62,431 nucleotides of DNA from positions 1-62,431 of IMG/VR virus record IMGVR_UViG_3300012933_000323; one strand, 5' to 3'. A program made the position numbers and the translations under genes. This document shows positions 2,593 through 20,339 of this stretch, one piece after another. How positions within the stretch are numbered: the first letter of the stretch is position 1; every line of letters begins with the position of its first letter. A model generated the notes under the pieces. That model searched no databases and was not told the DNA's origin. It saw only the letters and a list, made by a program, of their open reading frames with translations. Origin of the DNA: a virus. Its lineage: Duplodnaviria; Heunggongvirae; Uroviricota; Caudoviricetes.

Positions 2593-3960
2593 TTAAGCGG
2601 TGAATGTGCCAGATGATGTAAACTTGTGATATGTGTAACCACCAGAACTATAGACAGTACCGCCTAATGCTTTTTGCGAACCAGTGTATCTTATGATAAC
2701 AAGACCTGAACCACCAGCCGCACCTCTATAATGCAAGTCTGTAGAATTATTATCACCAGTATCGGCTCCGCCGCCACCGCCACCCATGTTAGCATAACCA
2801 GCTTCAGGGTATCTACCACCTTGTACACCAGCATCACCACCGCCACCTAAACCGCCAAGTGCAATTGATGCACCACCGCTACGGGTACCAGCCCCGCCAC
2901 CACCAGCAATATAATTGCTTTCGCCGGCAGACGTTGCAGATAGCCATGTAGAATGTGTATTAGATCCAATACCGCCACTACCACCAAGTTGTGGTTCTCC
3001 GTTTGTAGTACCTGTACCACCAGCTCCGCCACCACCGCCACCATATTGGTTACTTCCAGTAGAAACACCAGCATAACCTTGACCGGAAGTTCCAGAACCG
3101 CCAGAACTACCAGGCCAAGCGGCACCACCACCCGAACCACCTGAGCGACCATTAGCTGCACCACCAGCAGTAAGGTTTCTAGAACCAGCACCACCGCCAC
3201 CAATAGCATTAATAAGCGAAGTAGCGCTAAGAATTACAGAAGATGCACCACCGTCAGAACCTTGCGTGTAGATATCATTTGAACCTGAACCGCCAGCACC
3301 AACATTAATTGTAAGCGAAGCACCACTGGAGATACCTATTGCGTTTGTTACAATAAGACCACCAGCACCACCGCCACCACCGTAATAACCTGCGCCACCA
3401 CCTCCACCGCCAGCAACTGCTAAAATATCAATTGTGTATGGGACACCTTGTGCGTATTTAATCCAACTACTACTTGTAGCATGATACCATTCAGGAGAGT
3501 TAATATCTGTGTTAAACCTAGTCATACCATTTGTAGGTGATGATGGGCGCTGCGCACTTGTGCCAACTGGTAATGTTGCAGCACCAGTGGCTGAAGTCAC
3601 CCCAACTTTTAACGCTAACGCAGTATTAACAGTAACAATCTTACCATCAATTTCAGATTTTGTGTAACCATCATATAAGATAGCTTCAGGGTCTGTGCTG
3701 ATGGTGATCTCATCATTAAGATCAGCGCCAAGTACTAATGTAATACTACCAGCACCAACTGTATAGTCATCAACTGGTAATAACAATACACCGTTAGCAA
3801 AAACAAATACATGATCACCTTCTAGGCAATCTAAAATTTGTCCAAGTTTATCTGCTCCAGTAAAAATTGTTTGATTAGCTGATGTTGCATTAAAAACAAA
3901 TGTTTTTCGTGTTTTGGAAACAACGACCGATGAATTTAAATCATTGCCTAAGTAACCCAT
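2593..3960 (-). CDS. glycine-rich tail-fibre/adhesin-like protein, paralogue of 424-1386
   Basis: Same LPxGTxAQRP...RFN module, poly-Gly domain and near-identical C-terminus (GGYTYHKFTSSGTFTA). Confidence 0.7.
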   Translation of the reverse strand: MGYLGNDLNSSVVVSKTRKTFVFNATSANQTIFTGADKLGQILDCLEGDHVFVFANGVLLLPVDDYTVGAGSITLVLGADLNDEITISTDPEAILYDGYTKSEIDGKIVTVNTALALKVGVTSATGAATLPVGTSAQRPSSPTNGMTRFNTDINSPEWYHATSSSWIKYAQGVPYTIDILAVAGGGGGGAGYYGGGGGAGGLIVTNAIGISSGASLTINVGAGGSGSNDIYTQGSDGGASSVILSATSLINAIGGGGAGSRNLTAGGAANGRSGGSGGGAAWPGSSGGSGTSGQGYAGVSTGSNQYGGGGGGAGGTGTTNGEPQLGGSGGIGSNTHSTWLSATSAGESNYIAGGGGAGTRSGGASIALGGLGGGGDAGVQGGRYPEAGYANMGGGGGGADTGDNNSTDLHYRGAAGGSGLVIIRYTGSQKALGGTVYSSGGYTYHKFTSSGTFTA

Positions 3961-4304: not shown

Positions 4305-5624
4305 TTATCCAAGCGCAATCGCTAGTGCGACGGCTTCGTCAATTGCTTGTTGTTTTGCATCGCTAATATTATTTGTTACAGTTTGTACATAACTTCCATC
4401 GTTTCCGATTGCATCAGCAAGTTCCTTCAATGTATCAAGAACTCCAGGGGCGCCGTTGATTAATCCATTGATTGCAGTGTTAATCATTTCTTGTGTATGA
4501 GGAATGAAAGCATGTTCATCATAAGCGTTACATCTTACGAAGATCGTACCGTTAACTGGATGAGCATTTAGCACAAACGCAATAGGCATGCTAATCTGCG
4601 ATGTCGTTGGATCAATATTTGTTAAAGCACCGCTATCATTTGGTTTTAAATAAAGCACGGTGCCGTCAGACCATGTTTCACCCTGAGCTGAACCGCTTGT
4701 ATTGATCTGACGAACTTTACCAAATGTTGTAACAAATCCATCAAAACCTGGTTGAATATCTTCTGTGGCAACCCCAACGATATAACGAGCAAATGCCTGT
4801 TGACCATTATGTGGTGCAACAGTAATTCTACCAGAATTACCAATACTTCCGGTTGCCATTAAGACTGTACCGTTAGTAATTAAAGTGCTTGTGTTATTTC
4901 GTACACGAACTAGTTGTTCTTGGCCGACTTGAAGAGTTGCGCCATTCAATAGAATGTCTAATGTTTGTTCATCAGGATTCCAAGCAACACCACCAGTTGT
5001 TAGTGGTACGCTTGGTCCAGTTAAACTGAATTGAATCTGTGAAGTACTTACAATCGTATTCTGAATACCAGAAATATCAATACTAATAGTGCTTGCGTCA
5101 TTTAGTACAAGTGTTAATGTGTTTTGTGAAACAGAACCGCTCGTCACAAATTTGTCAGTGTTATCTAATAACGTACTGACATCTATATCAACTGTGCTTG
5201 AATCGTTTAATGTTAAAACTAACGAATTGCCTAAAACACCACCTGAAACTACAAATTTATCTGTGTTATCAAGTAATGATTGTACATCAATATTGATAGT
5301 CGTGCTATCATTTAATGTAAGCGTTAGAGTACCGCCTTGAACGTGACCTGATGTTACGAACTTATCGGTATTGTCTAGATATTTGCTGAGATCAATGTTT
5401 GTTGCACTGTTATTCTCATCTAGAAAGGTTAGAGTGTTACCGGTTAAAGCTAGTGATGTAACTACTTCCGGTACGGATGCAAGGGCTTTAACCTCGTCTA
5501 ATGCATCCTTTAAATTGGTTGCTGAAAGGCCACTGGTTGTATTGTCGTATGCGATGTTCTGAGTACCATCGACAATCTTATCAATGAGCTTAATGTCTTT
5601 TACATTTTCTTTATTGATACTCAT
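4305..5624 (-). CDS. fibre-like structural protein with ~35-aa tandem repeats
   Basis: LDNTDKFV(T/V)SG repeats; C-terminal APGVLDTLKELADAIGND fibre motif. Confidence 0.65.
   Translation of the reverse strand: MSINKENVKDIKLIDKIVDGTQNIAYDNTTSGLSATNLKDALDEVKALASVPEVVTSLALTGNTLTFLDENNSATNIDLSKYLDNTDKFVTSGHVQGGTLTLTLNDSTTINIDVQSLLDNTDKFVVSGGVLGNSLVLTLNDSSTVDIDVSTLLDNTDKFVTSGSVSQNTLTLVLNDASTISIDISGIQNTIVSTSQIQFSLTGPSVPLTTGGVAWNPDEQTLDILLNGATLQVGQEQLVRVRNNTSTLITNGTVLMATGSIGNSGRITVAPHNGQQAFARYIVGVATEDIQPGFDGFVTTFGKVRQINTSGSAQGETWSDGTVLYLKPNDSGALTNIDPTTSQISMPIAFVLNAHPVNGTIFVRCNAYDEHAFIPHTQEMINTAINGLINGAPGVLDTLKELADAIGNDGSYVQTVTNNISDAKQQAIDEAVALAIALG
5075..5430 (-). repeat. tandem ~105-bp coding repeats (LDNTDKFVxSG..TLTLxLNDxxTIxIDVxxL)
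   Basis: Three complete LDNTDKFV units plus a degenerate leading unit in the 439-aa protein; boundaries approximate. Confidence 0.7.
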
Positions 5625-5676: not shown

Positions 5677-5979
5677 CTAAGGCTTAGGATACTTATCTTT
5701 AATTGCTTGGATTTGTGCAGCCATTTCAGGTGGAAATACTCCAGCATGAAATAACGCATCTAATTGGTCGCCAATTGATGGGTATTCACCAGCGCGATTT
5801 ACACGTACTACGTTTGTTTGACTTGCTTTAATTGCATCAATTTTATTTTCTAAAAATTCTCTTGATGGCTTTTCAGTAGAATCATTCCAAACTAATGTGT
5901 CATAATCAAATGCATCAGTGATAGTGTAATCGCTTGATGCATATTTCCAATCTAAAATTTCTTTATAGTTATACATCAT
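5677..5979 (-). CDS. tail-fibre assembly/chaperone-like protein (XkdW-like)
   Basis: YDTLVWND..EKPS and R..EYPSIGDQLDALFH motifs; start moved to 5979 (ATGA overlap with the upstream fibre stop). Confidence 0.65.
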   Translation of the reverse strand: MMYNYKEILDWKYASSDYTITDAFDYDTLVWNDSTEKPSREFLENKIDAIKASQTNVVRVNRAGEYPSIGDQLDALFHAGVFPPEMAAQIQAIKDKYPKP

Positions 5980-7796
5980 TTGATCCACATCCATAAGTTA
6001 GTGTTGTTACCTTGTGTACCTACTTGGTTATTCATATTATTAGTACCACTAGTACCACCCCATGCACAAAGCGTGCCATCATCATAACCATACTTTGCAT
6101 TAGCATATGTGCAATCTTGCCCAGCACCAGTGGATGTATCTCCACCAAAAGTGATCGCAAGTGTACCGTCTTGGCGCATATTTGTCCCTAAGGTAATTCC
6201 TGGGGAAGTTAATCCACTATACCAATCACGCCATTCTTCAGTGCCGGTTGACCCGCTTGTGCCGCTATCAGACAAGTTTGCCCATACCTGATAGTTTGCA
6301 GTATAACCAAATTTTAAATTATAAGCAAAACTAAATTGGCGTAGACTATTACGTGGTAATGCTGCCCCGGCATTCACCGTACTTGAGTTGTAATGTGTAT
6401 TAACACCTGCACCAGCTGCCCACACTGTCTTCCACTGAATCGGTGATGACCAATAATAGTAGAAGTCTGCGTCAGAAGAAGCTGAGGCTAAATCAATTGA
6501 TGTAGCAACCTTAACACGCATGTGTTGCATGTTCATATTTCCAAAATTACTACTAAAACAGTTTAACGCCGTTGACCCAAATACTGCGCTAGATGATGTG
6601 CTATCTTTTGTCCATTCTGACGCATTTACCCATGAACCAACCAGCATCCAACCACCTTTACCGTCTTGACCTACTGTATCAAGATCACAATAAACTTGGA
6701 TCGGTGTACCATCTGCTCGTTGAATCCAGAATAAGCCTTTACCTCGAATACCCAAATCCCAAATAGCAGTTGCGCTCGTGGCAGCAGATGCAAAACTAGA
6801 ACCATCCTTTGCACCAATGAGTGACCATGTAGTTCCAGTGTAAACTTCTACAGCGTTGGCAGTGGTGTTAAATCGTGTATTACCTGAGGCCGGTGAAGCA
6901 GGGCGTTGGGCGAGTGTGCCAGCTGGTAAATCAAAATAACCAGTAGAAGTATTTACTTTGTCAGATACATTAGTTGGTGTTAAGTCTGTTAGGTTGGCTT
7001 TTAAATCCAATGCTGTATTTAACGTTGTAGTATTTACATAGTTATTTGCAGTTAAGTATGTTTGAACTTTACTATCTGCATATGCTGAGATAATAATATC
7101 ACCAGCACCTAAGATGCTAGTGCCATTAACAGTCTTAATTGTTGTCCATTGCGCTTCGTATGTATTTGGCGCAGCAATAATTTGACCAGTCTGACCGTAT
7201 ACACCACCTAATCTAATTCTATTAGTGATGATATCACCTAGTGCTTTAATATACCAACCAACAACCATACCAGGATTGTCGGTATCATTCTCGTCCATAC
7301 CAATGTTTACGTATGGATAACCTTGGTTTACTGCGCCAACTCTCATGTGGCCGTTGTAATAATTACCAGGATCTTTAACTTCAAACAAACCGTTAACTGT
7401 TACATTCCCGGTAAATGTGCCACCACTTAGGTTAGCTTTACCAGCAACCATATTGGTAATAGATGTCGCAAAATTGGGATCATCATTTAATGCTGCGGCA
7501 AGTTCATTCAATGTGTTCAGTGTACCTGGTGCAGAATCAACAAGACCCGCCACAGCTGCACTAACTTGTACTAATGTTTGATAACCTGAGTCATTTGTTA
7601 GTTGTGATACTAATGTTGGTTGTGTAATCGTTGCCCACGATGCATCAGCACCATTTGTGGTTAGATATTTACCTGTTTGATTAACTTGTGATGGAAGCGC
7701 ATCAAAATTAGTTACATCTGTCTGTAACTGCGTAACGCTTGCTTCAATCACATCGATCTTTTTAACGTCTGCTAATAAGTCTCTTACTTGTGCCAT
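5976..7796 (-). CDS. tail fibre with C-terminal fibrinogen-like (FReD) domain
   Basis: N-terminal DSAPGTLNTLNELAAAL fibre motif; IQVYCDLDTVGQDGKGGWMLV matches the fibrinogen-like VYCD..GGW signature. Confidence 0.7.
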   Translation of the reverse strand: MAQVRDLLADVKKIDVIEASVTQLQTDVTNFDALPSQVNQTGKYLTTNGADASWATITQPTLVSQLTNDSGYQTLVQVSAAVAGLVDSAPGTLNTLNELAAALNDDPNFATSITNMVAGKANLSGGTFTGNVTVNGLFEVKDPGNYYNGHMRVGAVNQGYPYVNIGMDENDTDNPGMVVGWYIKALGDIITNRIRLGGVYGQTGQIIAAPNTYEAQWTTIKTVNGTSILGAGDIIISAYADSKVQTYLTANNYVNTTTLNTALDLKANLTDLTPTNVSDKVNTSTGYFDLPAGTLAQRPASPASGNTRFNTTANAVEVYTGTTWSLIGAKDGSSFASAATSATAIWDLGIRGKGLFWIQRADGTPIQVYCDLDTVGQDGKGGWMLVGSWVNASEWTKDSTSSSAVFGSTALNCFSSNFGNMNMQHMRVKVATSIDLASASSDADFYYYWSSPIQWKTVWAAGAGVNTHYNSSTVNAGAALPRNSLRQFSFAYNLKFGYTANYQVWANLSDSGTSGSTGTEEWRDWYSGLTSPGITLGTNMRQDGTLAITFGGDTSTGAGQDCTYANAKYGYDDGTLCAWGGTSGTNNMNNQVGTQGNNTNLWMWIK

Positions 7797-8130: not shown

Positions 8131-9006
8131 TTACAGGAAAGTTATAATCAATGCTACAATTATTAATGATCCACATAGCAAGCCGATTGCCTTATAGAAT
8201 TCTAAAATAGGTGTATCAAAATATGTTTTACCAACAGTAAAACACTTGTGTGTTGGCGAGAACATATAACCAGCGTAATCGACGGCTAAGAATAGCGGTA
8301 AAAATTTAATACCGAATATCTTAGTTAATAGTGCTACGAACCCTGCATATTTACCTGAAGAACCCATCGCAAAACTAAATAAGAAACTTAGTACAGTAGC
8401 AACGGCAATAGATCCGCTATTTACAACTAAATCAATCATCTCTTTATCAAAAACTTTAATGTAATTACCTAAAATAATCACACCGGTAACCCAAGCCAAG
8501 ACTTTCCAATTAATCCATTGTGTATGTTTACCGCAGCAATGTTCGTGTTCTTCAATATCGATTGCGATATCATCTTCTTTTAATATAAAGAAAATGTAGA
8601 ATAGACTTACCGCCAAACACGTTACAATCAACGGCCACACAACAGAAATAAATCCTAAGTAACCTAAACCAAGAACAGCCATTGGTAAAATGACTGTTTT
8701 TTCCAACGGCGACCAGAAGTAATAATGGTGTGTACTCAGGTAATCAATGATACCGTATAATCTTCGCCTCTTATCTCGTGGTGCAATAGTATCTAAGAAA
8801 CCAGCTGATACAGTCACTCGTCCCTCAATTGGTAAAATACCAGAGATGGCGCTGATAATAACTACTACCGCTCGTTTAGATTTTACGTTCTTCGCAATCC
8901 AACGATAAACCGGCATAAAGATCCCAGTTTCTTTTGCCCATCCGGACATAATCATAATGAATGCTAGGTACGGGATGTACCAAAGACCTGCTAATAAAAA
9001 TTCCAT
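8131..9006 (-). CDS. polytopic membrane protein, ion-transporter-superfamily-like (DUF401/SLC13-like)
   Basis: About nine hydrophobic segments; ISGILPIEGR and FWSPLEK / MFSPTHKC paired motifs. Start reassigned to MEFLLAG at 9006. Confidence 0.6.
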   Translation of the reverse strand: MEFLLAGLWYIPYLAFIMIMSGWAKETGIFMPVYRWIAKNVKSKRAVVVIISAISGILPIEGRVTVSAGFLDTIAPRDKRRRLYGIIDYLSTHHYYFWSPLEKTVILPMAVLGLGYLGFISVVWPLIVTCLAVSLFYIFFILKEDDIAIDIEEHEHCCGKHTQWINWKVLAWVTGVIILGNYIKVFDKEMIDLVVNSGSIAVATVLSFLFSFAMGSSGKYAGFVALLTKIFGIKFLPLFLAVDYAGYMFSPTHKCFTVGKTYFDTPILEFYKAIGLLCGSLIIVALIITFL

Positions 9007-9007
9007 G

Positions 9008-9733
9008 TTATTTCCAAAAATGAATAGGACACTTCGGCTTATAGTGTTCTTCGTAAGCCTCTTTTGTCTTTTTACGATTAAAGATAAATGAGAAAGCATT
9101 TAAATACTTTTTCTTCTTTACCCATAATCTATCGTGATCGTTAATGTTGCGAACAATCAACTCGTATTTATCACTTGTCATTGGGATGATATGAACCAAC
9201 GGTGTACCAGCTTTAATAACACCAAGATGGTTGACATACCCTTGAATATTAACTTCACTACTTACAGACGGATCTAATATACCAGTTGTTGATTCAAACA
9301 TAAAGTTATCGCTGTAAGAAATTGGTAACATTAATAATTTCATACCTTTTGGCGCAACTATATGCCAAGGTGTGTTAATCTTTAAAATATCTGAATGGGA
9401 CCATGGGCGTTGAGGTAGAAACTTTGCAATTTCATGGCCACCCTGGACTTGAACTGGCGGACAGCCTAGCATGTCTTCCAAGTCAGCGCTGGGCGCATAT
9501 CCGATAAGCCTATCATTTTGGCTTTGTACATCAATATCATGCCAAGCCTTAATAATAAATCCTGTTGTTAAAATATCAACAATCCCAGGACACTTATAAA
9601 CACTTGGCATTGATTTATTGGAGATATATTCTTGCTTTGCTAAACCGATCCATGATGGTAGACATTCTTTAGCATGTTGAACCGGGAAGGCGTCTACAAC
9701 GCCGTCAATACTTGAATAAAATTCTATCTTCAT
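9008..9733 (-). CDS. DUF6065-like (dUTPase-like beta-fold) hypothetical protein
   Basis: CPGIVDILTTGFII, KINTPWHI, GILD and IKAGTPLVHIIP motifs; start reassigned to MKIEFY at 9733. Confidence 0.55.
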   Translation of the reverse strand: MKIEFYSSIDGVVDAFPVQHAKECLPSWIGLAKQEYISNKSMPSVYKCPGIVDILTTGFIIKAWHDIDVQSQNDRLIGYAPSADLEDMLGCPPVQVQGGHEIAKFLPQRPWSHSDILKINTPWHIVAPKGMKLLMLPISYSDNFMFESTTGILDPSVSSEVNIQGYVNHLGVIKAGTPLVHIIPMTSDKYELIVRNINDHDRLWVKKKKYLNAFSFIFNRKKTKEAYEEHYKPKCPIHFWK

Positions 9734-11343
9734 TTTTCTACCACCATAATATAAAGCCCATTCCACCACATCGTCTTATCCTCGATATCATTGTTGATAA
9801 GTTTAGAATATAGAACATTTAATTTCGTATCGGATATTCCAAGTTCTACACCTTTTACAACATCAGACCAATTCGCATCATCAAAAACCAATATTGCAAC
9901 ATCAGCTAAACAATCCTTGTAATATGATATTGCTTTACGTGTACTTTCGGTATCATGCGGGCCATCATAAAAGAATAAATCTATTCCGTTGATATTTGTT
10001 TTGTCAATACTTAAGAAGTCACCTTCGTGTACATGTAAATTTTTAATGTACCTTGTATATTTGTCGAACTCTTTTCTTGTATTAAACGGTAATTCAAACT
10101 CATCTTCCTGAGATTGAATATTATTTTCCCAATTATCTACACAATGTATTTCAATGTCAGATATAGCGACAGCTGTTGCACCCATCGCAGAACCAACTTC
10201 GAGATATTTTGTAGCATGAGTTGACAACCCGTATAGTAAATTTTGAACTCGTTTGGATGTAAGTCCAGGAATATCTAAATAATTTGCGTATGAAACACTA
10301 TTAACCAATTCATTCGCAACGGCTTGAACTAACGGGTGTTTGCCTTCGCTGGACTTCTTTTCATAAACCTTATCGCAGAAATTGCAGTCCCAACAATCAA
10401 ACTTGCAATTCTTAATGATCTTTCGCCAAGCATTAATCGGCTTATCAACCAAGTTTGTTTCTTCTAAATATTCTTTAAAGTCATCAAATAGAATATCTTC
10501 ATTAGCTGCGTACTTTTTAATAATATCCATGCTATTAAAGAGTTGTTTAACGGATTCGCGTCCATGCATTTTAAACACGTCCACATATCCCAATAATTCA
10601 ACCCAGTCTTCTCGCCAAGGTGGAATGTTGGCAGTCTTTAATGCAATGCTAGGATCTAGTACATCCCACTTAGGACATGATACACGTGATATGGGATCGT
10701 GAAAATAAGCAGCACCGGTAGTTCTACTGTTGTTGTATTCAAAGTGTTCATCCATCATAGGGCAATTGCCCAAGCAACCCTCGTTGCCCAATAACGAAAG
10801 TTTTACATTATATTTTAATGCGGCTTTTCGTAATTTAATTAATTCATCACGATCTCGCATTAAATCCCTATCCAAATTTACATAATGAAAACCTGCATCT
10901 GCAAGTCCAGCAATTTCGTTTGCCCTGGAAACATTACGTAGAATGGTGTTCTTTATAAGGAGGTCTGGGAATGCGTTTTGAATTTGTTTAGTGGCAACCC
11001 AATGAGTATGTGGAATCGTCGCAGAACGCACACCAGCATCATACAGTTGTTTAAAATTCTGTATGAATAGATCTAAGTTCTTTTGGGTTGGTGCAACTTT
11101 TATGTTGTTGAATGTCGCAGAGACTTTAATACCTAAAGTCTTCTGGATGTGTAATGCAGTTTCTATAGCGAAGTATGCATCTTCTTGATGTATGATAATG
11201 TCCCCCATTGCATCTTGTGTGAACGGGGGCATTCTGCATGTAAAATACAGATCATAGATATAATCTTTATATTCTGAGCAAAAATTATAAAACTCTTCAA
11301 ACTGTTGTTCGCTTAACTTTTGGTTAATAGGTAATGAGAACAT
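9730..11343 (-). CDS. fusion of U32-peptidase-like Fe-S domain and class I SAM-dependent methyltransferase (Methyltransf_24-like)
   Basis: N-part: NTILRNV, VNLDRDLMRD, NEGCLGNCP..EH, FKMHGRE, CKFDCWDCNFC. C-part: YLEVGSAMGAT and IDLFFYDGPHD...VFDDANW. Confidence 0.7.
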   Translation of the reverse strand: MFSLPINQKLSEQQFEEFYNFCSEYKDYIYDLYFTCRMPPFTQDAMGDIIIHQEDAYFAIETALHIQKTLGIKVSATFNNIKVAPTQKNLDLFIQNFKQLYDAGVRSATIPHTHWVATKQIQNAFPDLLIKNTILRNVSRANEIAGLADAGFHYVNLDRDLMRDRDELIKLRKAALKYNVKLSLLGNEGCLGNCPMMDEHFEYNNSRTTGAAYFHDPISRVSCPKWDVLDPSIALKTANIPPWREDWVELLGYVDVFKMHGRESVKQLFNSMDIIKKYAANEDILFDDFKEYLEETNLVDKPINAWRKIIKNCKFDCWDCNFCDKVYEKKSSEGKHPLVQAVANELVNSVSYANYLDIPGLTSKRVQNLLYGLSTHATKYLEVGSAMGATAVAISDIEIHCVDNWENNIQSQEDEFELPFNTRKEFDKYTRYIKNLHVHEGDFLSIDKTNINGIDLFFYDGPHDTESTRKAISYYKDCLADVAILVFDDANWSDVVKGVELGISDTKLNVLYSKLINNDIEDKTMWWNGLYIMVVEK

Positions 11344-11368: not shown

Positions 11369-12091
11369 TTATATCTCAAACCTCGCTGAATAATCGATTT
11401 GCTCAGCAGTTCGTTGCTTCACTGGCATTTCAATCCCAAACTTATTATGGAGTAATCTATTACAATCATAGATGCTTGCGCAAGACTTAATCAATAATTC
11501 AATCTGTTGTTTTGATGCTAGCATTATTGCAATTGATGTGTTATAAGCTGTAACGGCGTCATTTACTTTAGCCGCCATCTCACCAACAGATATACCACGA
11601 ACCGCGGATAGTGCTGTTAACATTGGCAGATTAGTTTCACCGGCTAAATACGCTTGAGCTTCTGACTTTTGTTGCAACCAAGAATTTTGTTCCAGCGTAG
11701 AAACGCCAATATTTAACTGAACTAAACGCTTGTCAAAGATTTCATCCAAGATTAAGTACATGGCTTCTTGCATTAATTTTGTCGTGTTTGTAATATCAGC
11801 ATCGGTTAATTGATACTGGACCTTCTCACCCGTAGCTTCTTCAGAATTAATAACCTGAAGCCTTTCATTTTGTGGAGTACCTGCACGAACAGAGATTAAT
11901 GTTCTAGCTGCTCCGAAGAACATCCATGACCATGCAACGTCTTCATCAATAACGCGAGCATTTAAATGACGATATTCAACAATGTCGACATGCGTATCTG
12001 GTAAATATCCAACTCGGTAGTCCATCCAACTACCAATAACTTTGATGATGCCAAGTTGTTGTTGATTAACACTTTTGAATAAGAGGTACAT
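11369..12091 (-). CDS. protein with C-terminal tail-fibre-assembly-like domain
   Basis: EQNSWLQQKSEAQAYL...PMLTALSAVRGISVGEMAAKV resembles fibre assembly chaperones; start reassigned to MYLLFK at 12091. Confidence 0.55.
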   Translation of the reverse strand: MYLLFKSVNQQQLGIIKVIGSWMDYRVGYLPDTHVDIVEYRHLNARVIDEDVAWSWMFFGAARTLISVRAGTPQNERLQVINSEEATGEKVQYQLTDADITNTTKLMQEAMYLILDEIFDKRLVQLNIGVSTLEQNSWLQQKSEAQAYLAGETNLPMLTALSAVRGISVGEMAAKVNDAVTAYNTSIAIMLASKQQIELLIKSCASIYDCNRLLHNKFGIEMPVKQRTAEQIDYSARFEI

Positions 12092-12851
12092 TTTGTGTAT
12101 TTTCCTGTGTTTTGTTTTCCAATTGATGGACAAAATCTGTCTTCTCAATTTGAATTAATTTATTAATATCTGAAACCGTTTCGCCATTTTTTAGTAAATG
12201 CACAACGCTATCGGATATTTGATTCATTCTTGACTCATTAGTCAATAGAACCTCGTAAGCCATTGCAATACATTTATTTTGCGCATTAGCATCTAGTTGC
12301 ATAATAGCTTCCATATTGCCAATTCCGATACGGCCATAAGCAATCATATCTAATGCAGCCTGTTTAGCTAAACGATATTCCCAATATTGCGCTTCAATTT
12401 TTTCGCATTCAACTGGATCATTCATTACATCCATGTATAGTTTACCTTGGTCATTTTTACCTTCAGCACTATTATTGAATTCGTCAATTAATTTTAGGTA
12501 TTTTTTAACTTCGTTATCAGCATTTCTAAATTTTTCTTTAGCAATAGCGTGAGCACGTGTTTTAACCATGATTTCTAATTGAGCCAATTTCTTTTCAGCA
12601 TCATATTTCATGTCTAACTGCTGTTCTTCTAATAACGCAATCTCAAGTTCGATTCTTTTGATATCGTTTTCAAAGATTTCTAAATTCTCATAACGAGAAC
12701 CTAACTCCATTAAATATTGTTTAATTTTATGTAATGGATGAATGTGAGAGCCAGCGACAAAGTGTTTAACTTTGAATTCTGGCACTGACCAATCATGTCT
12801 AATTGATTTATCAATTATTTGTTGATGTTCGTTATTGATTGCTGGTAGCAT
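12066..12851 (-). CDS. coiled-coil hypothetical protein
   Basis: EFKVKHFV...PLHKIKQYLMEL followed by a heptad-rich helical region. Confidence 0.65.
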   Translation of the reverse strand: MLPAINNEHQQIIDKSIRHDWSVPEFKVKHFVAGSHIHPLHKIKQYLMELGSRYENLEIFENDIKRIELEIALLEEQQLDMKYDAEKKLAQLEIMVKTRAHAIAKEKFRNADNEVKKYLKLIDEFNNSAEGKNDQGKLYMDVMNDPVECEKIEAQYWEYRLAKQAALDMIAYGRIGIGNMEAIMQLDANAQNKCIAMAYEVLLTNESRMNQISDSVVHLLKNGETVSDINKLIQIEKTDFVHQLENKTQENTQNVPLIQKC

Positions 12852-12854
12852 TTA

Positions 12855-13916
12855 TTATCCTTTCCATCCAGTTGCACCTGATGACCCGCCTGGGACACCT
12901 GTTCGTACAGAGCCAGCACCCAAGGTGTAACCAGCATCTGTGGCATAAAAGAATTTATGACCGTTGTTTGTTTGAGCGCCATTATAATTACCTAACATAT
13001 ATTGTTGGTCTTGGCCCATATCAAAGTTTTCTTCGCCCGTATTACCTTCTACTTTAGCGACAGTACCTTGTGTAGTATTCGTAGTCATATCAGTACGACG
13101 GAAGTTATATCCACCGTTGTATGTACCTTCATTGCCAGCATAACCCTTATACAACTTTGAGTTAATTGCCTTTTGTTGGTTATTAGCGCCAGCAACAGCT
13201 GTAGTAGTTTGTGTTCGGTCAGCCGATGTAGTATCTGTTGCAAATTGAATAGCAATAGATGTTCCATCGCCATATAGTAGTGCTTCTTTATCTGACGTGA
13301 TGGCTTGAACACCCCCGCCTAAACCGTTGGCAATGGTACTTAAACCAGATAATGCTGAAACTTCGGTCGTGAAATTAAATTTATCCGTGTTACTTTGTGA
13401 ACAAATATGAACATACTCATTTTCTTTAAATGCAACACCCGCGTCTTGACGAGCCGTTGACATATTATTTGAACTGCTATATGCAATTGCACTTTCTGTA
13501 GCCATGTTCATCGCTACGGAGTTTACCGATGCTACTGAGTGAGCATTCGCAGCACAGAATACCCATGCTTTAGTTTTACTAGGTGCCCCTTGGATATATG
13601 AAGCGCTATATGCTAACTGATCACCAAGGTTTGTACATACGTCGGTTGCGTGAACCATTCGGTTTACGTTCTTCCAAGGTGATGTGTCTTTGTATCCGCC
13701 AAGAACATACCCAGTCGTAATGATTGTTCGGTATTTAAAACCTGTATCACCAATTGCAACTTGTTGCCATGATGTACCATTCCATTGACGAAGGTGACCC
13801 TTTGTAGTGTTATAGTAAACTTGCCCAATAACTGGGGAAGCTGGATCTGATGCCAAGTTTGGCGTTGCAATGCCGTTGCCATCTAGGACGGTACTGCCGT
13901 TAATTTTGAATGCCAT
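12855..13916 (-). CDS. virion protein with short fibre N-terminus and Kelch-like beta-propeller
   Basis: About six ~45-aa repeats with G-Y/aromatic starts and F/HxT(D/E) ends (GYVLGGY...HATD; KFNFTTE; QFATDT; FFYATD). Confidence 0.55.
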   Translation of the reverse strand: MAFKINGSTVLDGNGIATPNLASDPASPVIGQVYYNTTKGHLRQWNGTSWQQVAIGDTGFKYRTIITTGYVLGGYKDTSPWKNVNRMVHATDVCTNLGDQLAYSASYIQGAPSKTKAWVFCAANAHSVASVNSVAMNMATESAIAYSSSNNMSTARQDAGVAFKENEYVHICSQSNTDKFNFTTEVSALSGLSTIANGLGGGVQAITSDKEALLYGDGTSIAIQFATDTTSADRTQTTTAVAGANNQQKAINSKLYKGYAGNEGTYNGGYNFRRTDMTTNTTQGTVAKVEGNTGEENFDMGQDQQYMLGNYNGAQTNNGHKFFYATDAGYTLGAGSVRTGVPGGSSGATGWKG

Positions 13917-15568
13917 TATAGAATTTCCTCTAATGCAAATTTATATTTCTTACCACTTTTATTATTGATAATGTATAAGTTTTCTGAACCTTCTTGAATT
14001 GTCCAATTACCACGAGTGCCATCAACAGAGTTGCCTTCGTCATGACCTTCGTTAGATAAATGCAAGTCGTTCGTGTAAACGTTTCTCCAACCGATTGTGG
14101 ACGACCCAAGATCATAAGTAGCGCCAGCTGTTGGAATAATATGAGCGGTCATATTAAGTTGGCCAGTCATAGTGTCACCAGCTTTATTTAGTTTTAACCC
14201 TAAAGATGTGTCTACCTCAGTCTTGGTATAAGTTGTTGATTGGTCTGCCTTTAATGCAAGTGCAGTATTAACTTCAGTCTTGGTATAAGTTGTACTTTGA
14301 TCTGCTTTTAAAGATAATGCAGTATCAACTTGTGAAATAGAATATGTGTAACTTGTATAATTACCAGCGTGTAGTACTTGATTACCAGCCTGTGTGATTG
14401 AACCCAATACATTAAATGTACCGTTGGTGTTCAACTTCATTTTCTCAACGCCGTCGATACCAAATGAAATTGCTTTACCGCCAATAGAATCAAAATATGT
14501 TACACCAATGGTGGCACCTGTTCTATCCGTGTTTTGCATAACACCTAGTGAAAGCCCGCCGGAATATTCATTACCTGTTAATGTAATAGCTGGGAATGTT
14601 CCACCAACTGCACCAGGGTAATTAAAGTTAACTGTTCCTGTTAAGCTACCGCCTGTTAACGGTAATGCATATTGGCCAACGTTATCAGTATGTAGTACTG
14701 CTTTACCAAGTTGTGTAATTGGTCCTTTAACTTCTAATGAACCTGTTGCATTACCAGGAAGGCTGACAGATGAGATATCAAATACCCATGGACCTGAGTA
14801 GGTAATCGTCGTATTGAGTACTGAGATTACTGTTACTTGTGTTGTACCAAGTGTTATTACATCACCTTCACTTAAACCAGAAATTGCATTTGTTAGGGCC
14901 ACTGATGCGTCAATGAAACTGACATATCCAGGATTTGAAGATACAGGCGGATAATCGATACCTTCATAAAATGTACTAATAGTTTGAGTACCGACAATAA
15001 GACCATTATCTATTACACCGCCAGTTAATGGTAAATATTGATTATGATGATCGCCCCAAGAATAGGCATTATCCCATTGCGCAATCTTTGTATTATCTTG
15101 TGTCCACTTTGTTCCAACTTGACCAGAAATAGTTGTTGCAAAGTTTGCGTCATTACCTAAAGCAGTGGCAAGCTCATTTAATGTATCTAATGTACTTGGC
15201 GCAGTATCGATCAACGCAGCAATACTTGATGCTACCTGAGCACCCGTTTGATATCCTGAATCGTTTGTTAATTGAGATAGTAATGTAGGAACAGTTACAG
15301 TTTTATAAGTACCATCACCAGATAAGAAATTACCACCACCTTGATCTGTTGGTGGCGAGTACTGAGTAATCGTACTCCATGATGCATCTGTACCGTTTGT
15401 AGTTAAGTACTTACCAAATTGGTTAGTTTGATCTGGTAAAGTGTCTAACGGTTGGTTGTCAATATTGATACCAGCACCAGCTGGTAAATTGATGTTGCCT
15501 AATGGGTCAATCAGTTCATGATCACCCAAATTCAGGCCGTGTTTGATTTTAAAGTTTTGAATAGCCAA
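13916..15568 (-). CDS. tail fibre protein
   Basis: DTAPSTLDTLNELATAL motif, KADQSTTYTKTEV repeats, and a C-terminal WRNVYTNDLHLSNEG...GNWTIQEG..LYIINNKSGKKYKF cap seen in T4-like cyanophage-type fibres. Confidence 0.75.
   Translation of the reverse strand: MAIQNFKIKHGLNLGDHELIDPLGNINLPAGAGINIDNQPLDTLPDQTNQFGKYLTTNGTDASWSTITQYSPPTDQGGGNFLSGDGTYKTVTVPTLLSQLTNDSGYQTGAQVASSIAALIDTAPSTLDTLNELATALGNDANFATTISGQVGTKWTQDNTKIAQWDNAYSWGDHHNQYLPLTGGVIDNGLIVGTQTISTFYEGIDYPPVSSNPGYVSFIDASVALTNAISGLSEGDVITLGTTQVTVISVLNTTITYSGPWVFDISSVSLPGNATGSLEVKGPITQLGKAVLHTDNVGQYALPLTGGSLTGTVNFNYPGAVGGTFPAITLTGNEYSGGLSLGVMQNTDRTGATIGVTYFDSIGGKAISFGIDGVEKMKLNTNGTFNVLGSITQAGNQVLHAGNYTSYTYSISQVDTALSLKADQSTTYTKTEVNTALALKADQSTTYTKTEVDTSLGLKLNKAGDTMTGQLNMTAHIIPTAGATYDLGSSTIGWRNVYTNDLHLSNEGHDEGNSVDGTRGNWTIQEGSENLYIINNKSGKKYKFALEEIL
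14190..14345 (-). repeat. 54-bp tandem coding repeat (TALxLKADQSTTYTKTEV)
   Basis: Two full and one partial 18-aa units; boundaries approximate. Confidence 0.7.
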
Positions 15569-15602: not shown

Positions 15603-15610
15603 TATTTATA
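15603..15610 (-). promoter_or_regulatory. T4-type late promoter TATAAATA
   Basis: Exact match overlapping the upstream stop codon, ahead of the 15568 fibre gene. Confidence 0.7.
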
Positions 15611-16373
15611 ACCTGCTGATGTCGTCTTCCGTGCATTCACTACCGTATTGAATCTCAATAACGTGCAAATCTGTTTTACCGATATTCTGAACTCGATGCC
15701 ATTCGCCTGGATGAACAGTATATGTATCGTGCTTATCCATTCTAAATTTAAACACTTCTAAACCAAGTTCATTAATTGAGTACAATTCGCCAACACCTGA
15801 TTCAATAAACCAAAATTCTGATCGCTTGTCATGGTATTGCATTGATATTGATTTGTTTGGTTCAATAACTAATCTCTTAACTTTTGCATTAGCACTTTGA
15901 TGGTATGTCATTGAATCTCCCCATACTCTTCTTTCGGTAGGAGATTTCCAATCTTTTAAAATCCATGATGAACTATTCTTTTTATCAGTACCACCTACGC
16001 CAAATATGAACTCAACTGTAGGATCATCTTTAAATCGTTGCATCTCAGGAATGTTCATTTCTGTTCTATCACCGCCATTTGCAAAGATGATCTTGTTATT
16101 AGGAAATAGCGCTTTTACTTTATTAATAGCTGCACATGCTGTATTATCAGAATCATCAAATTCAATAACACCCATTACATCTTTTAGGTTCTCTACGATA
16201 GACTTTCGTTCAGCGAAATTCATGAAAGCAGAACCTTTTTTACGCTGCAACCAGTCATCACTATTTAGACCTACCATAACACGGCCATAAGTTCGTGCTG
16301 CTTTAATATATTCAATATGTCCAGAATGAATCGGGTCAAATCCACCTGTCACAATTACAATGCTATCATTCAT
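15606..16373 (-). CDS. bifunctional cytidylyltransferase-like (TagD/RfaE family) + cupin (type II phosphomannose-isomerase C-terminal-like)
   Basis: TGGFDPIHSGH (HxGH), GLNSD and ANGGDR motifs; then WG...VKRLVIEP..SISMQYHDKRSEFW cupin motif. Confidence 0.85.
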   Translation of the reverse strand: MNDSIVIVTGGFDPIHSGHIEYIKAARTYGRVMVGLNSDDWLQRKKGSAFMNFAERKSIVENLKDVMGVIEFDDSDNTACAAINKVKALFPNNKIIFANGGDRTEMNIPEMQRFKDDPTVEFIFGVGGTDKKNSSSWILKDWKSPTERRVWGDSMTYHQSANAKVKRLVIEPNKSISMQYHDKRSEFWFIESGVGELYSINELGLEVFKFRMDKHDTYTVHPGEWHRVQNIGKTDLHVIEIQYGSECTEDDISRL

Positions 16374-16375
16374 GT

Positions 16376-17053
16376 TTATTCCTTAAATATTTTTCTATCA
16401 AACCACATTTGTTCATAACTATTTGTACCCTTGGTATTAAATGACGAAAGGATAGTTCCTTCAGGTTTATACAACCAGTGTAGTTCATCTTTTAAAAATG
16501 CACCCTTTTGTTTTGCAGTTATGTACTTAGATTTTCCAAACGTAATATCGTATTTCTTTAATTTACCTAGCATCATAGGTCCCGTGATATCTAACGGGTG
16601 AGCGCCATAAGCTTTACGCTTGATATTAGATAAACTTACGCCAATGGCATCACTTAAAAACGCATGATTGATTCTATTGAAATACATCACGCCATTATCT
16701 ATTAATGTTTCGCCAATATCATCAGAATCTGGTGCCTCATACAATATTGGAGAATCTTTAAATTCTAGTTTAAACTCTGGGCATATGACAACATCAAAAT
16801 AATATCCGCCGTATTTGTACAAAATGCAATACCTAGCTAAATCTGCCCTAAATGAATATGAATTCAAAGAATCATATAGTTTAACACTAGCATTTCCAAA
16901 TACTGATGCAACTTCAGTTCTACACATATCATTATCATATAACGTATACTTGTAGTCAGAATACAATTCTTTTAATTTGTTCACCTGACTTAGAATATAC
17001 TCGCTATCAATTGAGCCGTTATCTGAGATGTATATTTGATGGATATGTTTCAT
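16376..17053 (-). CDS. glycosyltransferase, GT32/DXD sugar-binding family
   Basis: IHQIY...RADLARYCILYKYGGYYFD...ITGP signature. Confidence 0.8.
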   Translation of the reverse strand: MKHIHQIYISDNGSIDSEYILSQVNKLKELYSDYKYTLYDNDMCRTEVASVFGNASVKLYDSLNSYSFRADLARYCILYKYGGYYFDVVICPEFKLEFKDSPILYEAPDSDDIGETLIDNGVMYFNRINHAFLSDAIGVSLSNIKRKAYGAHPLDITGPMMLGKLKKYDITFGKSKYITAKQKGAFLKDELHWLYKPEGTILSSFNTKGTNSYEQMWFDRKIFKE

Positions 17054-17676
17054 GGTATCTTCACCATAACAATATCTTCATTTAGCCCAAGCTTTACAAA
17101 TGAAAAAGTAAACCCAAATTCATCAGCTATAATCTTTGTTAGTACATCAAGTTCTTTCTTGTTTGATAATTCGTTATACTCAAACGTTAATGAACGATTC
17201 ACCATGAACTTATTTGCACTCAATAGTTCAATAAGTTGTTCAAGGATAATATTTTCACATCCTTCAACATCGATCTTTAAATGATCAACTGAATCAATGT
17301 TATATTTCTTCAATAGTGTCTCAAGTCGCATTGATTGGACGTTTCTCTTATCGTCCAAGATATCTCTTTCAAGAACAGCTGATTCTGCTCCAAAAATCTT
17401 ATGATTCTTTAGCATCCTTTTAAGATGTCTTGGGTTGCTTATTGCGGTTATGGGAATGTAAATGATTCCTGTCATATCTCTTGACTGCACATTCATCTCA
17501 ATAGTCCCGTCTTTATCCGTTATAGCTGAGCACTCAACTAAGACTGTTTTTGATGATGGTAGTACATCACAGAATTCTTTTATAGGTTCTACTAATAACC
17601 CATGGACATTTAAACCATAAGTATCGACGGAGACATTAGTATGACCGCAACCGATATCAATAAATGTATAATTCAT
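17050..17676 (-). CDS. FkbM-family methyltransferase
   Basis: FIDIGC...LVEP...AIT...LKIDVEGCE signature. Confidence 0.8.
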   Translation of the reverse strand: MNYTFIDIGCGHTNVSVDTYGLNVHGLLVEPIKEFCDVLPSSKTVLVECSAITDKDGTIEMNVQSRDMTGIIYIPITAISNPRHLKRMLKNHKIFGAESAVLERDILDDKRNVQSMRLETLLKKYNIDSVDHLKIDVEGCENIILEQLIELLSANKFMVNRSLTFEYNELSNKKELDVLTKIIADEFGFTFSFVKLGLNEDIVMVKIP

Positions 17677-19139
17677 CTTATAATCAACTTCTTCTTTGCT
17701 TTTAAATTTCTAATCTTTTGCTGTATTGGGCTTAATACTCCAACAGCAGCAAGATTTCTGAAAATTTCATCAGTGTGTTTAATGTCGTCCCAATCTTTAT
17801 ATTGACTCTTGCCAGTCAAACCAATGTTATGCGTAAAACGTTTCGATAGTTCTGGGTGAAGGAATGTTAAAGTTGGACATGACTGAATACCACCAGCGCC
17901 GTATGTTTCATTTAGATCAACGAACTTAATACCAGACGTGATTAATGATTTAAATACAACAAAACCATCGTATGGTTCACCCATTGTTAACAATTCATCG
18001 ACAATGTAATTCTTTTCGAAATGATCACGCCATTTTTGAACATCTGGATTTGACATATCAAAAATAAGAATTCCCGACTCAACATGATTATTTCCAGCAT
18101 GTTCGACTTGGCATGCCATAGCGCGATCACTTAGAACATCCTTCGGGAAGCTTTCATATTCGGTCTCATGGAACACCACATCGCCATCAACCCAGAACGC
18201 GTAACCTTCTTTAATTTTCTTCAACGCATCCTGAATAACCATTGCTTTATGACTAAATCGGATTGTCATCTTGTGCACATACTCGGCATATGTACTTTTT
18301 TCTTGAAATTCTTCTTTCCATTTATTATGATTAGGAATCATTTCATCATAATCTAATATTTCAATTTGCGGGTGGTTATCTTCTAATTCAAATCCGTGCT
18401 TATATATCCGTGCTTTTGCATTAGGATATTTGGATGCCACATTTTCTTTGAATGTTCTAATCCATGACTTGCCGTATAGTTCATACCCAGATTGATTAAA
18501 TGTTGTAAAGAATATCATTTCTTTCAAGTCTCTCTTATTAATATAGTTTTGTTCAGATTCACGCCAAGAGCCTGCACACAAATGTGAAATAAATTCTGTA
18601 TGTGTATTTATAGGAAGTAACTTATAATCTGTCTTATTAAATATTTGTTGAAGTGGGTCCATTCCAAAGTTTTGAACTAACATATCTGAGTTGACATCAA
18701 ATGCAATCTTATATCTATCGCACATTACATCAATTACTTCTTTTAGGAATGGGTGCTTTGGTTCAGCCGCAAAAAAGAAATTAGATACATTTGAATGTGT
18801 GTTAATTTCCTGTAAAAGAACTATTGATTCATTCTTTAATAAATCATCAATGTTCTTTCTACAGAATACATCAACATCAGAATAAATTCCACCATTAATA
18901 TAGACAACCGCTACTCGCCAAAAGTCTGCTCTCATTACACCTAATGGTAATGAGCAATACATGTTATAGATTTCTTTCGAAAAGTTTTGCCAAATGAATA
19001 CATCACATGCATTGTCATCCATAAACATAATGTCTAATTCAGGATTGTGTAGTACCCAACTTTTTAAATTTTGAGCATTTTGAGAATCGTTAAGGTAGTC
19101 TACTGACTTGGCAGTCTGCCATAAAATTTTTGGTATCAT
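17673..19139 (-). CDS. two-domain glycosyltransferase (GT32-like N-domain + second GT-A-like domain)
   Basis: MIPKILWQT...RADFWRVAVVYINGGIYSDVD; second domain RFSHKA...FWVDGDV...ESGILIF...DGFVV. Confidence 0.8.
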   Translation of the reverse strand: MIPKILWQTAKSVDYLNDSQNAQNLKSWVLHNPELDIMFMDDNACDVFIWQNFSKEIYNMYCSLPLGVMRADFWRVAVVYINGGIYSDVDVFCRKNIDDLLKNESIVLLQEINTHSNVSNFFFAAEPKHPFLKEVIDVMCDRYKIAFDVNSDMLVQNFGMDPLQQIFNKTDYKLLPINTHTEFISHLCAGSWRESEQNYINKRDLKEMIFFTTFNQSGYELYGKSWIRTFKENVASKYPNAKARIYKHGFELEDNHPQIEILDYDEMIPNHNKWKEEFQEKSTYAEYVHKMTIRFSHKAMVIQDALKKIKEGYAFWVDGDVVFHETEYESFPKDVLSDRAMACQVEHAGNNHVESGILIFDMSNPDVQKWRDHFEKNYIVDELLTMGEPYDGFVVFKSLITSGIKFVDLNETYGAGGIQSCPTLTFLHPELSKRFTHNIGLTGKSQYKDWDDIKHTDEIFRNLAAVGVLSPIQQKIRNLKAKKKLIIR

Positions 19140-19145
19140 AAAAAA

Positions 19146-19153
19146 TATTTATA
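19146..19153 (-). promoter_or_regulatory. T4-type late promoter TATAAATA
   Basis: Exact match overlapping the halogenase stop, just upstream of the glycosyltransferase run. Confidence 0.6.
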
Positions 19154-20339
19154 GACCTAGCCTTCTCTTCATATAATCATTTAGTCTAAGACCATCAAAG
19201 TTCAATTTAAATGAAGACACCGGCCAGACACCGTACCACTTACCTTTATATGTATCAGCATTATGTATAGAATTATCATATGATGCTTTAATGATATCAA
19301 CTAAAACCGGATCTTGCATAAGCATACCATCAATGAATAGATTTGATTTCTCTTCAGCAATTTTCCAAAATGGTGTATCATAAATACTCCCATTCATATA
19401 ATGGAAGTTGATAATTGCTTTTTGGCTATTTAATAAGTGATGGTACCACATATTGATTTGATCCAAGTCTGCTCTTTTACCAAAGACACGGGTATCAGCA
19501 AAATTATTAATATTCATAATGGTACTAATAGAAGTAGCTTCCATCGGTTCCAAGAAGAATGATGCATTACCATTATAAGTTACGCGATCTTTAAAGTTCT
19601 GTTTTCTCACATAATTACTAAAATGGAAACTGTTTGTGTCTTGGCTTGGTACTAAATCCCAATCTTTAAAGATTTGTTTGACATCTTCTTTAACTTCATC
19701 TAATGTATTCAAGTCGTGATTGTACATATATCCAATACTACAACGATTAGTTAAAGGAATAGCGAATACCCAACCATAAGGTCTAGCAATTGCTAATGTG
19801 TCTGTAAACTTTGCATTAGGCCAATAACATTGTGTTACGTGAACAGCATTTACATATACAAAGTCTGCTTCAATAACTTCACCAGTTTCCCAGGATGGTT
19901 TGCCTGTGCAGTCAACAATGTAGTCCGCATCTAGTTCGGAATGTTTTACGTTTGCTTGGATGATTTTTGTGTCAGGATAAAGTTCTTTGACTTTATTTTC
20001 AATAAACTGTTGCAGCTTATTTGCATTAAAATGCATTGACGAGAGAGGTGGCGGGAAGACATGATTAAAGTCAGAACCTTCTTTGGTCCAACCAATCTTT
20101 CTAACACCTGTTTTAAAGTTTCCATTGATTGCTTCTAAGTCCGACCATCTGAATTGCATATAACGATTAAGCATGTCTGGTACATCTGCTGTAGTACCTT
20201 CACCAACAGCTTGCGGTTTAATGTTTGGATCGTATACCCATTGTACTTCGTAACCCTGTTGCTTCGCGAAGTGTGAATAATGGACTGCTGATAAACTACC
20301 AGCAGTCCCATGTCCAATTACCGTAATCTTTTTCATCAT
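19149..20339 (-). CDS. flavin-dependent halogenase-like (tryptophan halogenase family) protein
   Basis: IGHGTAG FAD motif, AVGEGT, NFKTG (catalytic Lys position), GWVFAIPL, FLEPMEATSI. Confidence 0.8.
   Translation of the reverse strand: MMKKITVIGHGTAGSLSAVHYSHFAKQQGYEVQWVYDPNIKPQAVGEGTTADVPDMLNRYMQFRWSDLEAINGNFKTGVRKIGWTKEGSDFNHVFPPPLSSMHFNANKLQQFIENKVKELYPDTKIIQANVKHSELDADYIVDCTGKPSWETGEVIEADFVYVNAVHVTQCYWPNAKFTDTLAIARPYGWVFAIPLTNRCSIGYMYNHDLNTLDEVKEDVKQIFKDWDLVPSQDTNSFHFSNYVRKQNFKDRVTYNGNASFFLEPMEATSISTIMNINNFADTRVFGKRADLDQINMWYHHLLNSQKAIINFHYMNGSIYDTPFWKIAEEKSNLFIDGMLMQDPVLVDIIKASYDNSIHNADTYKGKWYGVWPVSSFKLNFDGLRLNDYMKRRLGL

Follow-up and report, generated by a model that had tools for sequence, protein, structure and literature searches.

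The stretch analysed here, the 62,431 nucleotides at positions 1 to 62,431 of the tailed-phage record IMGVR_UViG_3300012933_000323 (hereafter the window), carries on its minus strand a gene encoding 537 amino acids (9730..11343, ATG start codon) whose product joins an N-terminal U32-like domain to a C-terminal O-methyltransferase. A preliminary description of the window, made from the sequence alone, had read this gene as a possible hydroxylate-then-methylate enzyme; the open reading frame (ORF) and every motif quoted there were located in the sequence. The gene belongs to phrog_1458 and is an orthologue of cyanophage gene cluster T4-GC 354 (PSSM4_035, PHM2_101), which is annotated as 'hypothetical protein' in the cyanophage records. 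Standalone versions of the N-terminal domain are collected in phrog_36869, and neither PHROGs family has an annotated function. Searches of the literature for U32 proteins in cyanophages, for the locus tags and for 'sericin' returned no paper on the fusion gene.

The N-terminal domain (residues about 1-335; 10339..11343) was delimited as a (beta/alpha)8 barrel by AlphaFold2 (AF2) modelling, VIA-align, Foldseek and hhalign. Conservation analysis highlighted two segments within it: EGCLGNCPMMDEH (residues 188-200; 10744..10782), which holds the signature E188-x-C190-x3-C194-x4-E199-H200, and VSCPKW (residues 221-226; 10666..10683), which includes the conserved C223. They are followed by FKMHGRE (residues 257-263; 10555-10575) and, at the end of the domain, by CKFDCWDCNFC (residues 313-323; 10375..10407), whose invariant cysteines form the box C313-x3-C317-x2-C320-x2-C323. 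The C-terminal domain (9733..10263), assigned by Pfam and by fold as a class I S-adenosylmethionine (SAM) methyltransferase of the Methyltransf_24 family, contains YLEVGSAMG (residues 380-388; 10180-10206), D403, DLFFYDGPH (residues 455-463; 9955-9981) and FDDANW (residues 487-492; 9868-9885). All of these features lie on the minus strand.

A widespread fusion that also occurs as two genes

The preliminary description had allowed that the fusion might be an assembly artefact absent from relatives, and a survey of viral databases removes this concern. By tblastn, 126 phage records match the gene, and in 121 the match is unbroken and spans at least 80% of the query. Carriers include the T4-like cyanophages S-CAM4, S-RIM2, S-RIM12, Syn19, Syn33, P-HM2, P-SSM3, P-SSM4 and S-ShM2, at ~44% identity, and metagenome proteins add more than 2000 homologues at E <= 0.001, with identities of up to 87%. 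Three records of Ralstonia jumbo phages also match, and in RP12 and RP31 the match covers the N-terminal domain only.

The two halves also exist apart. On contig IMGVR_UViG_2786546475_000024 (L120), a 383-amino-acid U32-like gene (41% identical) overlaps by 4 nucleotides a separate 244-amino-acid methyltransferase gene that is 27% identical to the C-terminal domain (E 7e-10). That the halves are found both fused and as neighbouring genes points to a functional coupling of the two activities. L120 holds two members of the family, one of the 451-amino-acid standalone type and, 5 kb further on, the 383-amino-acid type with its own methyltransferase. The additional parts of alternative fusions and longer forms (P0132, P0222, P0241 and others) contained no Pfam domains, and a search for related loci with two single, distant family proteins (P0140, P0149) recovered no viral loci.

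Fold and conserved residues of the two domains

Pfam recognises only the C-terminal part of the fusion protein, where Methyltransf_24 (PF13578) matches residues 381-489 with 39.5 bits against a cut-off of 26.3. The full-length model (predicted local distance difference test, pLDDT, 84; predicted template modelling score, pTM, 0.61) contains a confident Rossmann-type methyltransferase fold, the best matches to which are the cation-dependent O-methyltransferases 3tfw, Rv0187, TomG and SafC, bacterial catechol O-methyltransferases (COMTs) and Bacillus subtilis TrmR. These fold scores are moderate, with template modelling (TM) scores of about 0.5-0.58, and are not specific to TrmR, which aligns with TM 0.50 and E 6e-7, similar to METTL5, CbiT and Rv0187. 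Neighbours by language-model features are viral Methyltransf_24 clusters, some of which bear TylF, Methyltransf_3 or CmcI signatures. Invariant or near-invariant residues comprise E382, G384 and G388 of motif I, D403, D460 and H463 of FYDGPH, and D488, D489 and N491 of DDAN, which, by comparison with COMTs in general, would be the SAM-binding, metal-binding and catalytic-base positions. The phage domain resembles the catechol and caffeoyl-coenzyme A types (Rv0187, TomG, SafC, 3tfw) in its fold, in motif I and in having an acidic residue for ribose binding, and its Asp/Asp/Asn set may correspond to their metal ligands; it differs from them in its low identity (~12-16%, at TM about 0.55) and in being fused to a barrel. 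Since the Pfam cut-off is passed and the fold matches agree, we regard this half as a class I methyltransferase, as had been described from the sequence, and as catechol-O-methyltransferase-like. The N-terminal domain is the better conserved of the two, and the C-terminal part is divergent in two representatives (P0126, P0127).

An exhaustive phmmer search with residues 1-345 collected 339 cluster representatives of the N-terminal domain, most of them standalone proteins of 320-460 amino acids. Among 65 diverse homologues, down to ~25% identity, the four cysteines C313, C317, C320 and C323 never vary, and conservation is 90% or higher at E188, C190, C194, E199, H200, C223, D255, K258, G261 and R262; such conservation across diverse homologues means that the motifs are not chance occurrences. 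The family thus has seven conserved cysteines, arranged as ExCx3Cx4EH, C223 and Cx3Cx2Cx2C.

The AF2 model of this domain (pLDDT 93, pTM 0.91) is a (beta/alpha)8-type barrel, so that the TIM barrel for which the preliminary description had proposed a structure prediction is indeed predicted, with U32 proteins as its nearest structures. Foldseek ranked the U32 peptidase MK0906 (5d88) first among solved structures. In an exhaustive VIA-align comparison, 5d88 reached Z 17.1 (root-mean-square deviation 3.3; 225 of 247 residues aligned) and the next TIM barrels 12.8. Among Swiss-Prot models in AFDB, the top Foldseek match was the U32 protein MJ1657 (E 6e-14, TM 0.70/0.73, 21% identity, residues 1-330), followed by TrhP, TrhP1/2, PrtC and RlhA. 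Profile-profile alignment with canonical U32 by hhalign gave a probability of 82% (E 1e-5) over residues 30-178, which span five barrel strands, and paired D31, P126, K131-T133 and D158/R159 with conserved U32 positions. Searches of the sequences of PDB chains with the whole protein and with profiles of either domain yielded nothing significant, and the fusion protein has no match in NCBIfam.

The barrel fold is therefore common to the phage domain and the U32 hydroxylation factors (TrhP/YegQ, TrhP1/TrhP2, that is YrrN/YrrO, RlhA and UbiU/UbiV) as well as MK0906 and MJ1657. According to the conservation and the AF2 model, the conserved Cys, Glu and His residues follow strand ends, and the E188-H200 signature comes directly after strand 181-185, the seventh in listed order in the model. 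By extrapolation of the hhalign alignment, C190 and C194 would stand where canonical U32 proteins have their first two cysteines. Unlike canonical U32 proteins, the phage domain spaces its cysteines as Cx3C...C and has an extra, invariant Cx3Cx2Cx2C box, and the phage protein lacks the U32 C-terminal domain, is fused to a methyltransferase, and is encoded by phages within fibre cassettes. We conclude that it represents a divergent branch of the U32 superfamily, carried mostly by phages and distinguished by a putative metal-binding signature of its own; the branch is new in its cysteine signature, its fusion partner and its biological setting. Judged from their conservation, the seven cysteines would most likely hold one or more Fe-S clusters.

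The U32 family was originally named for the PrtC collagenase. As PrtC is among the fold matches, the neighbouring fibre genes have collagen-like and intramolecular-chaperone domains, and a Cx3Cx2Cx2C box could in principle bind zinc, one can conceive of a protein without redox activity, in which the cysteine boxes would bind structural zinc, the barrel would serve as a protease or chaperone in fibre maturation and the methyltransferase would act independently. This is the least likely of the explanations considered here, and a highly improbable one: the conserved Glu, His, Lys and Arg residues that follow strand ends speak for a catalytic pocket, the cellular relatives come from strict anaerobes rich in Fe-S enzymes, and U32 proteins are described in the current literature as Fe-S hydroxylation factors (PMC10990095).

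A close precedent in arrangement is the yrrMNO system of B. subtilis, where TrhP1/TrhP2 and TrmR convert U34 to 5-hydroxyuridine (ho5U) and then to 5-methoxyuridine (mo5U). It likewise pairs a U32-type protein with a cation-dependent O-methyltransferase, which the phage combines in one polypeptide; it differs in that the phage methyltransferase belongs to Methyltransf_24 rather than Methyltransf_3 and has no RNA context. As a single-chain analogue, the fusion would place a 5-methoxy pyrimidine on phage or host tRNA or rRNA, so that codons of the AT-rich phage genome could be read with broader wobble. TrhP1 (O32034), TrhP2 (O32035) and TrmR (O32036) all match the fusion halves structurally, the only U32 proteins tied to macromolecular substrates, TrhP and RlhA, are linked to RNA hydroxylation (PMC10990095), and the 30 tRNA genes of the phage, which form one cluster (genome positions 128720-137912), include every classic xo5U34 type (Leu-UAG, Val-UAC, Thr-UGU, Pro-UGG and Ala-UGC). 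We nevertheless consider a role in RNA modification unlikely. The TM score to TrmR is no higher than to unrelated class I methyltransferases, the protein lacks a U32 C-terminal or other RNA-binding domain, and the gene lies ~117 kb from the tRNA cluster and always in a fibre cassette. Moreover, P-SSM4 and P-HM2 have the fusion and zero tRNA genes.

Fibre cassettes around fused and standalone genes

In transcription order, with all genes on the minus strand, the region of the window around the fusion begins with a halogenase-like gene (396 amino acids; 19149-20339) located 8 kb upstream of it. This gene is followed by a glycan-type set (15606-19139), which encodes a cytidylyltransferase fused to a mannose-6-phosphate-isomerase-type cupin, two DXD glycosyltransferases and an FkbM methyltransferase, and by a fibre gene (13916-15568). 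The cassette proper opens with a fibre-tip-like protein that ends in GGSSGATGWKG (12855..13916; phrog_1417, T4-GC 351 'sericin-like') and continues with two helper proteins, a coiled-coil one (12066..12851; phrog_1409, T4-GC 353) and a second one (11369..12148; phrog_1604, T4-GC 352), which directly precede the fusion. Downstream are two optional members, a phrog_7084 protein that is DUF6065-like by language-model features only (9008..9769) and a DUF401/TIGR00529-like polytopic membrane protein (8131..9099; phrog_14035), and then a second fibre gene (5976-7796). At lower coordinates on the same strand lie ORFs for a 439-amino-acid protein in which a Phage_cement_2-like segment is combined with a C-terminal motif of the fibre type (4305-5624) and for a 455-amino-acid protein with a Gly_rich_2 domain (2593-3960), as found in the paralogue triplets of the standalone cassettes described below.

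The glycan-type set, being on the same strand, raises the possibility that the substrate is a sugar, either on a glycosylated fibre or in the host envelope, and relatives within Methyltransf_24 do include sugar O-methyltransferases (TylF, CmcI/rhamnosyl O-methyltransferase). We find this improbable, as the glycan genes fall outside the conserved cassette in related loci and the U32 reactions that have been characterised genetically concern aromatic or heteroaromatic rings, not sugars (PMC10990095).

Synteny was assessed in 87 loci, made up of 80 IMG/VR loci with close homologues together with reference phages. Immediately upstream of the fusion, a GC351-like gene was present in 75 of the 87 loci, phrog_1409 in 80 and phrog_1604 in 59; downstream, phrog_7084 occurred in 55 and the membrane protein in 50. 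The position among fibre genes, from which the preliminary description had argued against a routine tRNA role, is hence that of a conserved cassette and no accident. BLAST comparison with P-SSM4 showed the order of GC352 and GC353 to be swapped in the window. In L120, phrog_1409-like and phrog_1604-like genes precede the split U32-like and methyltransferase pair. In the very distant Ralstonia jumbo phage RP12, which has no methyltransferase, a fibre-like gene (ORF143) is followed by ORF142, phrog_1409 (ORF140), a standalone U32-like gene (ORF139) and a membrane protein (ORF138); the phrog_1409 gene thus adjoins the U32-like gene in RP12 and L120 as well. ORF142 resembles GC351 weakly (E 0.005). 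ORF138, which overlaps ORF139 by 8 nucleotides, was considered as a split-off methyltransferase and rejected, as it is 35% identical to the membrane protein of the window (E 3e-60).

The standalone branch, sampled in 80 further loci of uncultured phages and found in no cultured phage record, has a cassette of its own. It comprises fibres with S74 chaperone domains, three Gly_rich_2 paralogues, a 139-amino-acid protein, the U32-like gene and often a 2-oxoglutarate (2OG)-oxygenase-like protein, and in 52 of the 80 loci it continues with a 538-amino-acid flavin halogenase, with the U32-like gene lying between the Gly_rich_2 fibre proteins and the halogenase. This full-length halogenase is orthologous to VirX1 (E 5e-149 to PDB 6qgm), a cyanophage flavin enzyme whose active site is large and open and for which neither a natural substrate nor a gene cluster is known. 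VirX1 is an aromatic-ring tailoring enzyme of marine T4-like phages, as the U32-like enzyme would be, and it differs in its unrelated fold and O2-dependent chemistry; the halogenase-like gene of the window is shorter, at 396 amino acids. On 58-kb ENA contigs, a standalone member has a tail-spike-like protein on one side and, on the other, the cyanophage auxiliary genes for a heme oxygenase and a ferredoxin-dependent bilin reductase; a 62-amino-acid DUF6171-like ORF precedes it.

Cellular members of the standalone branch come from metagenome-assembled genomes (MAGs) of Dehalococcoidales, Pirellulaceae, Brocadiia and Phycisphaerae. The chromosome CP139473.1 of Dehalogenimonas, an organohalide-respiring bacterium, carries three standalone copies among reductive dehalogenase genes, and at three loci the cellular U32-like gene adjoins a B12-radical-SAM protein with a PqqD peptide-recognition domain. 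One Dehalogenimonas copy has a DAHP-synthase-family gene as its neighbour, a possible link to the supply of prephenate.

In the ubiquinone pathway, ring hydroxyls are subsequently O-methylated. A small-molecule role for the fusion can be framed on this model, with UbiU/V- and UbiG-like hydroxylation and O-methylation of a quinone or aromatic metabolite and with the DUF401-like membrane protein handling a lipid or anionic substrate. Under anaerobic conditions, hydroxylation of a membrane-bound aromatic ring depends on UbiU/V (PMC10990095), the C-terminal domain resembles catechol O-methyltransferases, the membrane protein gene is coupled to the U32-like gene of RP12 by their overlap and is present downstream in over half of the loci sampled, and VirX1-type halogenases accept small aromatics in vitro. 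The membrane protein is, however, optional, no further biosynthetic genes are conserved, and the most constant neighbours are fibre-type proteins, which leads us to view a small-molecule substrate as quite unlikely.

Proposed tailoring of the host-recognition apparatus

We tentatively propose, at somewhat less than even odds, that the gene encodes a bifunctional tailoring enzyme for the host-recognition apparatus. By analogy with UbiU/V, TrhP and RlhA, we infer that the U32-type Fe-S barrel would first add a hydroxyl, independently of O2, to an electron-rich carbon of an aromatic or heteroaromatic ring, presumably taking the oxygen from prephenate, and that the catechol-O-methyltransferase-like, putatively cation-dependent domain would then methylate the new hydroxyl to leave a methoxy group. 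For UbiU/V, TrhP and RlhA themselves, prephenate-dependent, O2-independent hydroxylation rests on genetic evidence only (PMC10990095). Given how tightly the gene is tied to a cassette that contains a fibre-tip-like protein and two helpers, the substrate most likely belongs to the host-recognition apparatus, and may be found within the fibre-tip cassette itself, for example as an aromatic side chain of the tip protein. We regard the fibre-tip protein as the likeliest target: fibre-tip proteins are constant neighbours in three independent cassette types, and the neighbouring enzymes are all of aromatic-ring or protein-tailoring kinds, to which the PqqD link in bacteria can be added.

A bolder version of this proposal, which we put forward as doubtful, is that the fusion is the first U32-type hydroxylase to act on a protein, converting a Trp, Tyr or His of the receptor-binding tip into its methoxy derivative as one tool of a wider phage kit for post-translational modification of fibre tips. 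Such a kit would also include the VirX1-type halogenases, the 2OG-oxygenase-like proteins and radical SAM enzymes, and the viral halogenases would gain their missing natural substrate. Tip-like paralogues often number two or three per locus, and their C-terminal motif, GGSSG-x-C-x-W-[KR]-G, was recognised in 122 of 139 close homologues, with the cysteine present in 97.

Several observations weigh against the proposal. PF01136 (Peptidase_U32) did not match the fusion protein at E <= 1, nor anything in the whole 205.5-kb phage genome at E <= 10; it did not detect the three Dehalogenimonas paralogues of the N-terminal domain and matched just one of the 65 relatives. The canonical [4Fe-4S]-binding U32 motif, Cx6Cx15Cx3-4C, occurs in none of the 65 family members, and was found in five of seven canonical U32 reading frames taken from MAGs as a control. 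The hhalign match is limited to residues 30-178 and ends ahead of the cysteine region, and the packing of the two domains is not reliable in the full-length model, given its pTM. RP12 and the standalone branch have no methyltransferase, the shared gene order of the 80 close loci is in part a matter of common descent, and the downstream membrane protein has no evident part in protein tailoring. The SSGxCxW[KR]G motif of the tip protein was tried as a universal target and rejected, as the orthologues in P-SSM4 and P-HM2 lack it and both phages carry the fusion. Finally, U32 hydroxylation in vitro has been shown for no enzyme, and no U32 enzyme acting on a protein is known (PMC10990095).

The earlier interpretation is thus borne out in part. 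Its U32-like assignment stands on fold and profile-profile comparison and falls short on Pfam membership and on the canonical four-cysteine motif; the conserved cysteines, the methyltransferase and the reality of the fusion are all supported. Its suggestion that an O2-independent route would suit a microaerophilic host finds no support, as close homologues occur in phages that infect oxygenic cyanobacteria, and O2-dependent enzymes (flavin halogenase, 2OG-oxygenase-like) are encoded in related cassettes.

If the target is indeed the fibre tip, abundant marine phages would diversify host recognition through side-chain chemistry and not through sequence alone, and the neighbourhood of the VirX1-type halogenases would hint at the natural role of enzymes that are used in biotechnology. 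U32 proteins form a large family, and no in vitro system has yet reproduced their chemistry, including the use of prephenate as oxygen donor and the part played by the Fe-S cluster. A compact phage enzyme equipped with its own methyltransferase for the second step would mark its product stably with a methoxy group, and the presence of the gene in the cultured cyanophages P-SSM4, P-HM2, S-RIM2, Syn19 and Syn33 provides a tractable handle.

Some further features of the phage genome deserve mention. The gene psbA is absent from it. The tRNA cluster includes an amber-suppressor-type tRNA (anticodon CTA; Pyl according to ARAGORN) and a tmRNA-like gene with the tag ANDESYRIAA. The last stretch of the record (genome positions 185556-205555, minus strand) contains nine consecutive radical SAM genes, one with a SPASM domain, and also encodes a second Trp-halogenase-like protein and a fibre-type protein whose chaperone domain is of the Peptidase_G2 type. 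With a tenth radical SAM gene at 118.7 kb, the density is unusual for a phage. Were the genome circularly permuted, the radical SAM run would directly precede the fibre region of the window.

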